NCBI GenBank assembly: GCA_964639335.1
Contig: CAZXCJ010000001.1
Location: forward strand, 1 to 60,025
Length of the DNA stretch: 60,025 bases
Direction of reading: 5' to 3'
Source of the DNA: an uncultured Gammaproteobacteria bacterium
Lineage (GTDB): Bacteria > Patescibacteriota > Patescibacteriia > UBA1558 > S5-K13
Below the pieces are notes generated by a model that saw nothing but the letters and a program-made list of their open reading frames with translations, was not told the origin of the DNA and did not search any database. Of the stretch, positions 5,277 through 19,573 are shown piece by piece (within the stretch, counting starts at the first letter, position 1; each line of letters starts with the position of its first letter). The position numbers were made by a program, and so were the translations under genes.

Positions 5277-6572
5277 CTAGATATTAAATTTTTTTACTTT
5301 TTCCAAAACATCTGATAAGGTCTCTCCGAAAAATATTAAACCATCTTGGTGCCCGCCCATAACTAAAACTCCTTGGTCTCTATTGGCTTTCTTCTGTAAA
5401 ATCTTCTTAATAGAAAAAGCCATTTCCGGGGTCCCATAAGCGGCCATCTGATCAGTAGTAGGAACCTTACCTTTTAATTTCTGCCATAATTTCCGGTTAT
5501 GAATATGAATAACGGCCTTAATAGAAAGACTAGAAACATAAACCGCTAAATGGCTCATGCTCTCTGAAGAAGGCTTGCTTCCCCCAGAATAAACCACTTG
5601 ATTCTGCTTAAAATCCCAATCCAAAATTAAAGAATAATGTTTTGTTTTCAAATTCTTCAAGCCTCCGCTGGCACTGCCGGTGATAATAAATTTATTCTTT
5701 CCATAACGACAGCTAATATTCCCGAAACCGATCCCACTTTTATACATTCCAATCATATTTTTCCCCCAAAAATAATCCCGATATTTATCTAATTCTTTAA
5801 TATCTTTATTTTCTAAAGACTTATATTTTTTTAACCAACAATTAAATTTAATATAACCTTCGTCATTTATTTCTAAAATGTTCAATAAGTCACTGAATTT
5901 GCTAATGGAATAATTAGCCCTTTTTACTTTGGCATTACTAAAATGAATCGAAGTAAATCCCATCCGATTAGCACCAATAACATCCATTTCATAATTATCA
6001 CCAATCACATAAACCTGACAATTTTGACCACACTTAGATTTTTTTAAAGCTAATTTAAAAATTGCTGAAAACGGTTTTTCTCGACCGATCTCCTCCGAAC
6101 AAACTATAAAATCAAAATATTTAGCTATACTTAACTTTTCTAATTTTTTAATTTGGACATAGGTTAACAAATTAGACACTAAACCCATTTTAATTTTGCT
6201 TTCATACAATATCTTTAGGGTCTTTTCAACTGTGGGAAATAATTTTAGATATTTATAAGTTGTTCGCCAATAAATATCAGCTAAATCATCCTGAAGAAAC
6301 TCTGGATCACTAGGAAATTCTATAATCTCTAACATTCTCTGGAAGTATAATAAACGATTATGAGATGAAGCCGTCCCTTTTAAATTTTTATGAACATATT
6401 TTCTAGATTCACCATATAACTCATTAAACTTCTTTCTAGAAAATTTTGGCTTATATTTTTTAAAAAATAAAAAACAAACCTCTTTTGCTTTGGTATAGGC
6501 CTCTGTAGAATTACATAAAGTATCATCCAAATCTACTAATAATAATTTACCCATAAATTTATTATAGCACAA
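5277..6572 (-). CDS. fusion protein: HAD-family hydrolase (N-terminal) plus class II aldolase/adducin-like domain (C-terminal)
   Basis: LLVDLDDTL, GLVSN and IGDNYEMDVIGA are HAD motifs. The C-terminal SESMSHLAVY...VIHIHN pattern matches class II aldolase. The true start may be the Met at 6554. Confidence 0.6.
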   Translation of the reverse strand: MCYNKFMGKLLLVDLDDTLCNSTEAYTKAKEVCFLFFKKYKPKFSRKKFNELYGESRKYVHKNLKGTASSHNRLLYFQRMLEIIEFPSDPEFLQDDLADIYWRTTYKYLKLFPTVEKTLKILYESKIKMGLVSNLLTYVQIKKLEKLSIAKYFDFIVCSEEIGREKPFSAIFKLALKKSKCGQNCQVYVIGDNYEMDVIGANRMGFTSIHFSNAKVKRANYSISKFSDLLNILEINDEGYIKFNCWLKKYKSLENKDIKELDKYRDYFWGKNMIGMYKSGIGFGNISCRYGKNKFIITGSASGGLKNLKTKHYSLILDWDFKQNQVVYSGGSKPSSESMSHLAVYVSSLSIKAVIHIHNRKLWQKLKGKVPTTDQMAAYGTPEMAFSIKKILQKKANRDQGVLVMGGHQDGLIFFGETLSDVLEKVKKFNI

Positions 6573-6638
6573 AACAAAAAATCACTTTTAAATAAGTGAA
6601 TTATTCTAGTCAATATCACCCCTTCCTTTTTTAAAGCT

Positions 6639-6884
6639 TTACTTTTTACTTACTAACTTCTCCTTTCCAATTCTAGACCATTTCTTAATTTGTCTTTCTC
6701 TTCTCATGGCCTCAATTTTAGTTTTAAACTCTTCAAAATATATAATTTTGACAGGTCTTCTTTGCTTAGTATATTTTGCACCTTTTCCTAAATTATGTTT
6801 CTTTTCTCTAGAATCTAAATTTTTACAATACCCTGTATAAAATGAGCTATCCCTGCACTTAGCTATATATGTATAAAATGACAT
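6639..6884 (-). CDS. GIY-YIG nuclease-superfamily protein (YhbQ/UPF0213-like)
   Basis: FYTYIAKC..SFYTGYCKNLDSREKKHNLGKGAKYT...RERQIKKW. Confidence 0.8.
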   Translation of the reverse strand: MSFYTYIAKCRDSSFYTGYCKNLDSREKKHNLGKGAKYTKQRRPVKIIYFEEFKTKIEAMRRERQIKKWSRIGKEKLVSKK

Positions 6885-6904
6885 AAAATATATTTAAAAC
6901 GTTT

Positions 6905-7031
6905 GTCCCTCGACTCCTCATTACATTCGTCGCTCGGGACACTCGATTCGTTTTTAAAAAGAATGGTTGGAATGAAGCGAAGCGAAATGAAAACCACGAG
7001 TGAGTCCCGAATTTATGAGGGACGAATCGAG
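6905..7031 (-). other. GC-rich structured spacer between tRNA-Ala(UGC) and the GIY-YIG gene
   Basis: 11-bp long-range complement (6940-6950 with 7023-7033) and 5-bp stems gtccc/gggac at 6905/6936 and 7004/7019. Confidence 0.4.
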
Positions 7032-7108
7032 TGGTGGACCTGGAGAGACTCGAACTCTCGACCCCCTGCTTGCAAAGCAGGTGCTCTAGCCAACTGAGCT
7101 ACAGGCCC
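7032..7108 (-). tRNA. tRNA-Ala (anticodon UGC), CCA encoded
   Basis: Cloverleaf gggcctg/caggtcc with G3:U70, anticodon loop ttTGCaa, T-loop ttcgagt. Confidence 0.93.
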
Positions 7109-7168
7109 TTATTTTATTATATATTAATCTTATATTATCGAATAACTATTTAAAATCTAATTGTTATT

Positions 7169-7281
7169 TGCGAAGTTGGGAACCAACTGTCGCAGACCCT
7201 GAGCCCGTCGAAGGGTCGAAGATCCTCCGTAGTCCCTCACTTTTTAAAAAAGTGGGGGGCGAAGGGGGAAGCTACAGGCCC
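7169..7281 (+). repeat. GC-rich multi-hairpin element ending in a 12-nt complement of the tRNA-Ala 5' end
   Basis: Hairpins at 7169-7194 and 7195-7218; nested module 7223-7269 (tcctcc-gtag-[hairpin]-cgaa-ggggga); 7270-7281 is identical to 7097-7108. Confidence 0.55.
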
Positions 7282-7401
7282 ATGTAGGAATTTTCAATTA
7301 CCAATTATCAATTTACAATAAATTTTTAATTATTGAATTATTAATTAAGTATGGCCGCGCCACAAACCCGAGTAAGGAGTTTACGACGAGCGAGTGGTTT
7401 A

Positions 7402-7478
7402 TGGTGGGTCCTATAGGATTCGAACCTACGGCCTTCTCGGTGTAAACGAGACGCTCTAACCAACTGAGCCAAGGACCC
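7402..7478 (-). tRNA. tRNA-Val (anticodon UAC), CCA encoded
   Basis: Acceptor gggtcct/aggaccc, anticodon loop ttTACac, T-loop ttcgaat. Confidence 0.92.
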
Positions 7479-7546
7479 GTATGAATGTAAATAACAAATT
7501 ACAAATTTCAAATTACAAATAAAAACTTTTTAAAAAGAACTACTTG

Positions 7547-7597
7547 TCCTCCGTAGCTCCGAATCTTGTGAGGAGCGAAGGAGGAAGCCAAGGACCC
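7547..7597 (+). repeat. nested-hairpin module ending in a 12-nt complement of the tRNA-Val 5' end
   Basis: tcctcc-gtag-gctcc..ggagc-cgaa-ggagga-agc followed by caaggaccc; 7586-7597 is identical to 7467-7478. Confidence 0.55.
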
Positions 7598-7717
7598 AAT
7601 AAATTAATTTTGAATTATCAATTTTTAATTTCAAATAAATTTTTAATGAATTAATCTTTAATTAAAAATTTTGGGATTCAGATTTAAATTAAAATTTAAA
7701 ATTCAAAATTCAACTGC

Positions 7718-7806
7718 TGGTGCCAGAGAGAGGACTTGAACCTCCACGAGAAAAAATTCTCACAGGCCCCTCAAGCCTGAGCGTCTACCAGTTCCGCCAC
7801 TCTGGC
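7718..7806 (-). tRNA. tRNA-Leu (anticodon GAG), long variable arm, CCA encoded
   Basis: Acceptor gccagag/ctctggc, anticodon loop ttGAGgg, type II variable arm, T-loop ttcaagt. Confidence 0.9.
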
Positions 7807-7843
7807 AAAGGTCTACCAGACTGCCCCGCATATGAAGGAAGTA

Positions 7844-8284
7844 TTACTTAAATACGGATTTTTTTAATCTCTTAGTATAATTTTTTAGATAATATAATTT
7901 TGACTTCCTAGATTTTATTTTACCAACAACCTCTATTTTATCTATTAATGGAGAATTTATAGGAAATATCTTTTCTACTCCAATGCCACCTGATTCTTTT
8001 CTAACTGTAATAGTGGCCCCAACTTCTTGTCCGTGCTTACGAGCCAAAACAATGCCTTCAAAAACTTGGATTCTTTCTTTTTCTTCACCCTTAGTGTTTT
8101 TTTCTTTAATTTTTTGATAAACTTTAATAATTTGCCCTGGCTGAATATCCTTAAAATTGGCTTTTAAATCTTTTTTATCAATTTTTATGTCTTTTTTATC
8201 TTCTGATTTTTCAGATGTTTTGGCTTTTTGAACCTTTTCTTTCTCAAACTCTTTATTTATTGACTTATCTTCTTCTTTTTTCAT
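7844..8284 (-). CDS. rplS: 50S ribosomal protein L19 with a K/E-rich N-terminal extension
   Basis: IQPGQIIKV...[15 protein letters not shown]...ITVRK...[11 protein letters not shown]. The start was moved to the Met at 8284 because the upstream 50 codons of the ORF are hydrophobic junk. Confidence 0.9.
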
Positions 8285-18562: not shown

Positions 18563-19573
18563 ATGTCTAAGAAAAATAAGATTGTCATTGGATTAATATT
18601 AATAATATTAATTGTGATAGTTGTTTTATCAATTAGTTTAAAAAAGCAGGGATTAGAACCAACATCTAGTCAATTAATTAAACTGAAACTTGGTGGACAT
18701 ACTACAATAGCAGGTGTTATTTTGGAAACAGCACAAGATAAAGGATTTTTTAATGAACAGGGTTTAGATGTGGAGATTGAACGAATAGAGAGTTCTAAAA
18801 TATCAATGGCTGGATTAGAAAACGGAGAATTAGATATAGTTATTGGTTCAAGATCAGCAGGAACTTTTAATTATTTGGCAAAAGATGAAAAATTACGAAT
18901 CATTGCTGATGCAGGCAGAGTTACTCCAGTTATTATTATTAGAAAAGACCTTAAGGATTCAATTAAAACATTAAAAGATCTAAAAGATAAAACATTTGCT
19001 ACACCAAGACAGGGAAGTACTTCTCAATATGCTTTTGCTAAAGTTTTAGAAAGTGTTGGTTTATCTTTGAATGATATTATATCTAAATCTCTTAAACAGC
19101 AAGAAGCTGTTACAGCTTTAGAAACAGGCAACTTAGATGCTGGAATAATTAATGAACCATATGCAACTATAGCAATTGATAAAGGAATTGGTATTAGGTT
19201 AGGTGAGAATGAAGTAGAAAAGCTCTTTCCTAATGGTCAGCAACACATGGTCTTACTTATTACTACAAATACTTTAACAGATAAAGCTAATGCTGTTAAG
19301 AAATTCTTTAAAGCATACAAAAAAGCAGTAGATTATTATAATAAAGCAAAGGAAGGTAATCAGCCAGAAAGAGATGAAGTGATACGTATTATATCTAATT
19401 ATACAGGCATTGATTCTAAAATTATTAATAAAATTGTTTGGATTGATATTGCAAGTAATCTAAAACCTGATATGGCTTATCTGGAAGAAGCTCAAGATTG
19501 GTATTTTGAGAATGGATTCTTAGAGCAAAAAGTTAATTTACATGAAAAAGTTGATTTGAGTTTTTTGCCTTAA
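18563..19573 (+). CDS. ABC transporter substrate-binding protein (NMT1/THI5, nitrate-sulfonate-bicarbonate type)
   Basis: N-terminal anchor and SBP fold pattern; lies upstream of a NitT/TauT-type permease and ATPase. Confidence 0.7.
   Translation: MSKKNKIVIGLILIILIVIVVLSISLKKQGLEPTSSQLIKLKLGGHTTIAGVILETAQDKGFFNEQGLDVEIERIESSKISMAGLENGELDIVIGSRSAGTFNYLAKDEKLRIIADAGRVTPVIIIRKDLKDSIKTLKDLKDKTFATPRQGSTSQYAFAKVLESVGLSLNDIISKSLKQQEAVTALETGNLDAGIINEPYATIAIDKGIGIRLGENEVEKLFPNGQQHMVLLITTNTLTDKANAVKKFFKAYKKAVDYYNKAKEGNQPERDEVIRIISNYTGIDSKIINKIVWIDIASNLKPDMAYLEEAQDWYFENGFLEQKVNLHEKVDLSFLP

Follow-up and report, generated by a model that had tools for sequence, protein, structure and literature searches.

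The window considered here is a stretch of 60,025 nucleotides on contig C1 of a draft genome of 1.07 Mb, 30% G+C and 66 contigs, in which 44 tRNA genes, including that of a bacterial initiator tRNA, are present. Three tRNA genes lie close together on its minus strand, and a gene for a small GIY-YIG protein follows tRNA-Ala (Table 1). In the interval between tRNA-Leu(GAG) and tRNA-Val(UAC), the plus strand at 7547-7597 reads tcctcc gtag ctcc gaatcttgtga ggag cgaa ggagga agccaaggaccc. The last twelve bases, 7586-7597 (agccaaggaccc), are identical at 12/12 positions to 7467-7478, the reverse complement of nt 1-12 of tRNA-Val(UAC), as had been claimed in a sequence-only reading of this DNA. Viewed on the tRNA strand, this copy of nt 1-12 sits 119 nt upstream of the tRNA-Val gene and the hairpin comes directly after it. 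The order of the parts is an old leader, nt 1-12, a 39-nt hairpin, CAAG, D-loop bases, a second leader and the intact tRNA-Val. The tail thus matches tRNA-Val because it is tRNA-Val sequence.

Table 1. Features of the tRNA-Leu, tRNA-Val and tRNA-Ala region of the window, listed 5' to 3' along the minus strand.
Feature	Position	Strand	Basis or remark
Right half of tRNA-Leu 5' stump, tgcgggg-CAG-TCTGGTAGAC (~Leu nt 16-25)	7811..7830	minus	directly upstream of tRNA-Leu(GAG)
tRNA-Leu(GAG) gene	7718-7806	minus	
Leader A before the stump, read as old tRNA-Val leader	7598..7665	minus	promoter-like match; leader similarity
5' stump, exact tRNA-Val(UAC) nt 1-12 (GGGTCCTTGGCT)	7586..7597	minus	12/12 identity to 7467-7478
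Type-1 two-tier hairpin insert, 39 nt, between tRNA positions 12 and 13	7547..7585	minus	fold, covariation
Linker CAAG and degenerate D-loop remnant TAGTT (tRNA-Val nt 13-17: CAGTT)	7538..7546	minus	
Leader B of functional tRNA-Val	7479..7537	minus	promoter-like match; G001 leader match
Intact tRNA-Val(UAC) gene with encoded CCA	7402-7478	minus	ARAGORN; Rfam tRNA 73.7 bits
Sister element: tRNA-Ala nt 1-12, type-1 hairpin, further hairpins, D-loop remnant, upstream of tRNA-Ala(UGC)	7169..7281	minus	
tRNA-Ala(UGC) gene	7032-7108	minus	
GIY-YIG gene after tRNA-Ala	6639-6884	minus	

The insert, called type-1 here, reads TCCTCC-TTC-G[CTCC..GGAG]C-TAC-GGAGGA on the tRNA strand and TCCTCC-GTA-G..C-GAA-GGAGGA on the plus strand. 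A T-run begins 10 nt after it, and the 107 nt between the two copies of nt 1-12 hold no ORF; the Val unit itself has no nuclease gene. An Rfam search of 6500-8000 at E <= 1 returned no family besides the three tRNAs and one stray weak match, to Plastid-ycf2, which lies on the opposite strand of the tRNA-Val gene and is far below its gathering score.

Both leaders hold a sigma-70-like match, and these lie at similar distances from nt 1. In leader B it is TTGAAA-16-TACATT (7511-7484), with a predicted start at about tRNA nt 1, and the leader agrees at 36/38 positions with the tRNA-Val leader of G001, a genome of the same genus (z = 10.9). Leader B is therefore the usual leader of tRNA-Val in this genus. 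In leader A the promoter-like match is TTGAAA-16-CAAAAT (7634-7607). Its likeness to the leaders of tRNA-Val in G007 and G002 (z = 4.4-4.6) is only suggestive because the sequence is AT-rich and of low complexity. The region of leader A is 78% identical to the sequence upstream of the Ala stump (7348-7252). An AT-rich repeat of ~110 nt, 7606-7715, lies between tRNA-Leu and the Val stump and overlaps leader A. At least 20 copies of this repeat were found genome-wide at 75-90% identity, some of them by tRNA stumps (contigs C4 and C6) but many elsewhere; the Ala stump, too, has a copy in front of it (7348-7252).

The Val feature had been described as a second copy of a module with a common scaffold. 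Comparison of its hairpin with that at 7223-7272 bears this out for the outer arms and the GTAG, CGAA and AGC junctions, which are common save a single base of the outer arm (GGGGGA vs GGAGGA), while the inner hairpins are different. The spacer of the Ala element is ~82% identical to the spacers before Thr, Lys and Asn tRNAs. The weaker echo that had been noticed at tRNA-Leu, the 9-mer gtctaccag at 7783-7791 and again at 7811-7819, is a real repeat and a relic of the same kind, namely the right half of a Leu stump, but its hairpin belongs to a different family. Complete Leu stumps, in which nt 1-15, an CCCCGCACA..TGCGGGG hairpin, nt 16-27, TT and the tRNA follow one another, were found in G001, G002, G006 and G009.

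The recurrence of such copies in this genome was investigated by a motif-agnostic search for nt 1-12 of each tRNA on the same strand, within 600 nt upstream and with at most one mismatch. Copies were found at 12 of the 44 tRNAs, and at none in the controls, i.e., the three other combinations of flank and strand. The earlier proposal, in which the tail matches whichever tRNA lies downstream, is therefore correct for this genome. More degenerate copies were observed at Ile(UAU), Thr(CGU), Lys(CUU), Lys(UUU) and Leu(GAG), and about one third of the tRNA genes of the genome carry the stump layout. The copy ends at nt 12 in nearly all class I tRNAs and at nt 14 in Ser; within class I, only a second Ala stump departs from this, with its end at nt 17. 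Almost every stump is followed by a GC-rich hairpin at a fixed position, between nt 12 and 13 in class I tRNAs and between nt 14 and 15 or 15 and 16 in Ser and Leu, and the inserts found at this fixed position belong to several different hairpin sequence families. Other hairpins also occur in stumps between nt 7 and 8, between nt 17 and 18 and elsewhere. It had been asked whether the tRNAs preceded by such a module have a property in common, and one was found: all tRNAs with a type-1 hairpin carry T-R-G-Y-T at nt 8-12, the 5' strand of the D-stem. A type-1 hairpin lies within 400 nt upstream of 13/24 class I tRNAs with T-R-G-Y-T (His being included only through the neighbouring Arg-tct locus) vs 0/9 of those without it.

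Two tRNA-Ser(GGA) loci, one in the present genome (contig C5, 22800-23224) and one in L098, carry longer stumps of 36 nt that end in the anticodon and are then followed by an CCACCGCC..GGCGGG hairpin. As these two genomes are unrelated, the sequences suggest that a second preferred break or insertion position may exist.

The sequence beyond the insert is informative. Beyond the insert, Arg(UCU) continues with AATGGATAGAACAACGGCC, corresponding to nt 15-33 of the tRNA, Arg(GCG) with AATGGA..AGAAC, and Ala, Thr and Lys with CAGTTGG, while at Val only CAAG-TAGTT is left. CAAG or CAGG followed by the tRNA-specific D-loop is the rule at the other stump loci. At several loci 10-40 nt of the leader are repeated as well. 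The possibility of a tRNA intron was ruled out, since none of 30 inserts interrupts a complete tRNA and removal of the insert restored a full tRNA in 0/30 cases; two apparent restorations were stumps merged with a nearby real gene. An origin of the hairpins by fold-back was also dismissed, the hairpin sequences not being derived from local tRNA sequence.

The exact repeats invite a reading in which a miniature cassette, made of the hairpin and a promoter-bearing spacer (~107 nt at Val), inserts between nt 12 and 13; a 12-bp staggered cut would duplicate nt 1-12 and regenerate the gene behind a new promoter, the stump being a by-product of insertion. It would account for the exact 12-nt direct repeats that flank the block at at least nine loci, for spacers that are ~82% identical across tRNA species while the repeat matches the local tRNA, for an insertion position that is fixed regardless of hairpin family, for unit arrays that look like tandem re-insertion and for longer versions that hold a GIY-YIG gene in the same place. 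However, the tRNA-specific sequence after the hairpin in Arg-tct (nt 15-33) and Arg-gcg requires a duplication of more than 12 nt and of variable length, the repeated leader bases extend it further, and the block has no terminal inverted repeats. Moreover, leader B is the leader expected of the genus and the stump allele can differ from that of the gene. Taken together, these observations make the cassette improbable. Pure 12-bp target duplication was ruled out as a general rule because tRNA sequence resumes past the hairpin, and a MITE with a fixed target-site duplication was rejected in view of the missing terminal inverted repeats and of a duplication that reaches nt 20-33 and sometimes the leader.

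Arrays of two to four stump units were also seen. They lie upstream of single tRNA genes in the present genome (contig C16, 24430-24698), L027 (Komeilibacteria), L124 and L060. The unit consists of leader, stump nt 1-12, hairpin and D-loop bases, with a period of ~95-135 nt; in the L027 array two spacer types alternate and the inner hairpins differ among the units. A paralogous cluster, Leu(CAG)-Val(UAC)-Ala(CGC), was found on the 2.7-kb contig C59. It is 99.4% identical to window 7615-7092 over 524 nt, both stumps included, and the identity stops at tRNA-Ala nt 17, where the second Ala stump is split between nt 17 and 18 by a TCCGCC..GGCGGA double hairpin. The match thus reflects a recent conversion or duplication, with a hairpin at its boundary.

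In the type-1 hairpin, a 3x3 internal loop separates an outer stem of 6 bp from an inner stem that is closed by G-C and otherwise free in sequence. Both helices covary, with 22 double-sided changes over 23 instances in an alignment anchored by hand on the inner stem ends, and none of 500 shuffles reached that number. Comparison of the two strands revealed an asymmetry. Relative to shuffles, the Val hairpin is more stable on the plus strand (z = -3.1) than on the minus strand (z = -1.4). In the alignment, 95.7% of the cells are paired on the GTAG strand, the antisense strand of the tRNA, vs 90.9% on the other; eight U-G pairs of the GTAG strand correspond to C-A mismatches on the opposite strand. 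Free energy was lower on the GTAG strand in 29/30 instances, which are not independent, as the internal loop common to them gives part of the difference. Since pairing is slightly better on the GTAG strand, the hairpin is suggested to be recognised as a single strand.

This asymmetry is also what would be expected of an antisense guide RNA. Such an RNA would consist of a plus-strand scaffold with the GUA/GAA internal loop, followed by a 3' tail of 12 nt complementary to nt 1-12 of tRNA-Val, and its 5' flank might be complementary to the D loop. It would guide the processing, modification or cleavage of either the tRNA or the tRNA gene. Besides the better pairing on the plus strand, the 12/12 tail match at most loci and the conserved scaffold junctions around a variable inner stem speak for it. 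The strand asymmetry is, however, equally expected of a hairpin recognised as single-stranded DNA (PMC11893778). No promoter-like site was found on the plus strand within 7480-7546, no Rfam family matches, tails with 1-5 mismatches or of an older allele exist, and the D-loop flanks decay and are struck by further hairpins. The element is absent from G003 of the same genus and from most relatives. The sequence-only reading had implied a scaffold of this kind with a programmable tRNA tail; this was not supported, as the tail is part of a truncated gene copy, the tRNA sequence resumes after the hairpin and 27/28 copies of the module collected without regard to flanks, like all 13 viral ones, have no such tail (see below). 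A guide function is accordingly very unlikely.

The dispersal of the hairpin was followed with a strict type-1 pattern, which gave 9 matches in this genome and was present in 17/401 sampled genomes of the phylum; a reversed control pattern gave 0 matches in the search. When 28 instances from other genomes of the phylum were fetched regardless of their flanks, one was linked to a tRNA (a Pro stump, 12/12), and the other 27 had unrelated flanks, often the two arms of another hairpin. IMG/VR contigs yielded 13 full type-1 copies, with a tRNA-matching flank in 0/13. Members of the family are found in either orientation, and their sites include rRNA genes, viral contigs and the loops of other hairpins. 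Copies are nested within copies; in this genome most copies lie at position 12/13 of tRNA stumps. A sequence-specific target "GCT|C" was ruled out, because the flanks of non-tRNA copies have no common motif and many of these copies lie in loops of other hairpins. Genome-wide, 189 GC-rich hairpin islands were found vs 8 in shuffles. Sequence within 500 nt of a tRNA makes up no more than 4.3% of the genome and contains 22% of these islands. The type-1 hairpin is thus a member of a generic family of dispersed, nested palindromes. In G019, a relative of the same order, two inverted type-1 copies (contig C26, ~19203-19311; L006/L009) lie 31 nt apart within the domain IV region of the 23S rRNA gene.

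REP/REPIN sequences, the GC clusters of yeast mitochondria and the Rickettsia palindromic elements are partly similar in being short, imperfect and nested palindromes that are present in many copies in an AT-rich genome. The presence of GTAG, insertion into structural RNA genes and maintenance of the hairpin by compensatory change are further points of likeness to REP-type palindromes. In contrast, GTAG lies inside the outer stem here and at the 5' end in REP. The RAYT/Y1 transposase (PF01797), by which REP/REPIN sequences are mobilised, gave 0 matches in the genome itself, which is 95.7% complete, while control genomes were detected.

The locus was then compared with those of relatives. In G003, of the same genus, the rplS-Leu-Val-Ala locus is an empty site, with spacers of 9 nt (tRNA-Leu to tRNA-Val) and 15 nt and no stumps, and the locus of G005 is also empty, with spacers of 33 and 50 nt. 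The Val element is absent from most relatives and occurs patchily, having been gained and lost even among genomes of one genus; in G001 a decayed hairpin or module precedes the tRNA-Val leader. The sequence-only reading had staked its case on the tail/tRNA match being reproduced at other tRNA loci and in relatives. Besides at least 12 loci in this genome, the match was found in G008, of another genus of the same family, for both Val and Ala, and in G015, and 12/12 matches occur in Komeilibacteria, Dojkabacteria, Saccharibacteria and other CPR records. A contig scan with TAGCT+TCCYCCTTCG gave 120 loci, which are mostly chance 15-mers; about 20 hold real modules.

A function of the sense transcript was considered as well. 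Stump and hairpin would then belong to the precursor of tRNA-Val or to the trailer of tRNA-Leu and act as a cis processing signal, a decoy for enzymes that bind the tRNA 5' end, a stabiliser or an attenuator. The promoter-like site before the stump at the same distance as before the gene and the T-run 10 nt past the hairpin would fit, and the arrays found before some tRNAs could raise the number of promoters. Nevertheless, gain and loss within the genus and decay of the units, as in G001, are hard to reconcile with such a role, and the G-U pairs of the other strand correspond to C-A mismatches on the sense strand, the fold of which is not set apart from shuffles (z = -1.4). The chances of a sense leader element seem to us slight, on a par with those of the guide.

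Stumps do not always agree with the gene that they precede. Tails with one to five mismatches or of an older allele exist, and the Leu stumps of G009, G006 and G002 carry the acceptor sequence of congeners and not that of the resident gene. In L076 (Nomurabacteria, ~2016-2400), a tRNA-Thr is flanked by a 20-nt 5' stump of another allele, in this case without a hairpin, and by a 3' stump of that same older allele. As the Leu stumps and L076 carry old alleles, a stump can be the leftover of an older gene copy. The 3' stump of L076 corresponds to the T-arm/acceptor, so that the tRNA gene has apparently been inserted within an older tRNA gene; the new gene is bracketed by 12-nt inverted repeats (CCCATTAGAAGT / ACTTCTAACGGG).

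Fourteen paralogs of the 81-aa single-domain GIY-YIG protein are encoded in this 1-Mb genome, with PF01541 as the only domain found. By a count from coordinates, about 8 of the 14 lie within 1.5 kb of tRNA genes, and on contigs C10 (Arg-tcg), C6 (Ser-cga) and C5 (Ser-gga) the gene stands between a hairpin-split stump and the tRNA. On C10, about 100 N (~6903-7003, masked) fall within the interval from stump to GIY-YIG gene upstream of tRNA-Arg(UCG). The nearest structures of the protein are those of UPF0213, 1ZG2 and 1YWL, and cd10448 and UPF0213 are the candidate subfamilies; NCBIfam has no family for the neighbouring nuclease.

The single-domain GIY-YIG enzymes of the Ssn family cleave single-stranded DNA strand-specifically near the NTS/SRM hairpin motif and limit recombination tracts in transformation (PMC11893778). 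The arrangement found here may be a similar one, in that small, multi-copy single-domain GIY-YIG genes lie beside strand-asymmetric, GC-rich hairpin repeats, and by analogy, limiting of tracts in the manner of Ssn would fit hairpins that mark segment boundaries. The local protein differs from Ssn in being nearest to UPF0213 structures, and strand specificity is seen here indirectly, as an asymmetry of pairing. The published SRM motif, HGTCWY..RNCYNB, gave 0 matches on either strand of the genome (0-1 in shuffles), and the Ssn paper makes no mention of tRNA genes (PMC11893778). A second nuclease of relevance is SegB of phage T4, which is described as a free-standing GIY-YIG homing endonuclease in a tRNA gene cluster, the breaks of which lead to non-reciprocal transfer and, according to a report of 2026, to segmental amplification (PMC2330249; PMC13096335). 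The link of a GIY-YIG nuclease to tRNA genes is common to both systems and the amplification resembles the stump-unit arrays. Unlike the local protein, SegB is larger, has a DNA-binding part and is phage-borne, and neither hairpin inserts nor 5' stumps are described for it.

Two further systems leave pieces of tRNA genes behind. Integrating elements leave displaced fragments of tRNA genes, seen as att direct repeats, usually of the 3' part, and the incoming DNA supplies the replacement end. As in att scars, the inserted DNA at the Val locus is bordered by a direct repeat of part of the tRNA gene, the gene stays intact and the repeats allow precise loss. Unlike att scars, the 5' end is repeated here, with ~107 nt between the repeats and neither integrase nor cargo, and stumps of the Val type carry a hairpin at a fixed position. 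An integrase-type island scar was therefore rejected: the repeat is present, but the 107 nt are without ORF and it is the 5' end that is repeated. The 178-bp repeats of E. coli tyrT, with RtT RNA (RF00391), are likewise tandem repeats by a tRNA gene that contain a tRNA piece and a structured element; those repeats lie downstream, in contrast, and carry the tRNA 3' end. RtT (RF00391) gave no match at E <= 1 in 6500-8000. Each of the known systems compared fails at least one defining feature tested here, and no description of the hairpin-split 5' stump layout was found in full-text literature searches on tRNA remnants with palindromes, GIY-YIG with tRNA genes and CPR palindromic repeats.

We consider it probable that the Val feature is a relic, namely the truncated 5' stump of a displaced or duplicated copy of the tRNA-Val gene, split by a hairpin and left by recurrent replacement or duplication. 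Among the origins considered, recurrent replacement or duplication of segments at tRNA genes is the likeliest. For the order of events, we infer that tRNA genes would act as hot spots at which a segment comprising hairpin, leader and tRNA replaces or is duplicated onto the resident gene. The left junction of the segment would fall inside the D arm and the promoter-proximal piece of the resident gene would survive as the stump. The hairpin may have come with the incoming segment, as its left end, or have been inserted afterwards into the dispensable copy; only dispensable copies would carry it because, as we propose, it is lethal in a working gene. Unequal exchange between the 12-nt direct repeats could then give rise either to arrays of stump units or to clean loss, back to the compact empty site. 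The breaks could plausibly be made by hairpin-directed single-domain GIY-YIG nucleases encoded beside many of these tRNAs, and expression may be affected.

Some observations sit less well with the relic and its proposed origin. The D-loop remnant at Val is a weak one, and it is from other loci that a duplication beyond nt 12 is deduced. A fixed insert position with differing hairpin families is awkward for a stump that forms first and receives its insert at random later, and hints at a coupled mechanism. The constancy of the position across hairpin families and the scarcity of hairpin-free stumps argue for a break at a defined place of the tDNA. The ~82% identity of the spacers across Ala, Thr, Lys and Asn is unexplained by simple replacement with orthologous DNA. 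Concerted evolution bounded by unlike acceptor sequences is one possibility for this likeness across tRNA species.

A bolder proposition, which we offer as a tentative one and hold to be rather doubtful, is that the stumps were left by minimal selfish elements of an undescribed class, still active in Patescibacteria and in some other phyla. Such an element would be a strand-specific, single-stranded DNA hairpin, recognised by a single-domain GIY-YIG nuclease of ~80 residues, that invades structurally defined D-arm positions of tRNA genes (12/13 in class I; 14/15 or 15/16 in Ser and Leu) and keeps the gene alive by a 5' end and a promoter that are supplied or duplicated. The units at Val and Ala would then be ORF-less miniatures, and the hairpins would delimit the tracts of natural transformation. 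If the link with GIY-YIG genes is causal, the element would be among the smallest self-propagating DNA elements known and a source of hairpin-specific single-strand nucleases.

Because stumps accompany about one third of the tRNA genes in this 1-Mb genome, guide- or leader-like motifs upstream of CPR tRNAs should be read first as tDNA relics. The relic reading of the Val feature also implies a reproducible and position-specific turnover of essential, single-copy tRNA genes. Since old alleles survive in them, the stumps are dated footprints, from which gene flow among uncultured Patescibacteria could be reconstructed.

The sequence on the other side of the gene is also of note. The segment 7337-7401, directly after tRNA-Val (CCACTCGCTCG...), is homologous to the trailer of tRNA-Thr(CGU) on contig C8 (79% over 98 nt) and resembles the start of the structured spacer before the GIY-YIG gene after tRNA-Ala. 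It has the look of a 3'-docked cassette of which a remnant without an ORF is left.
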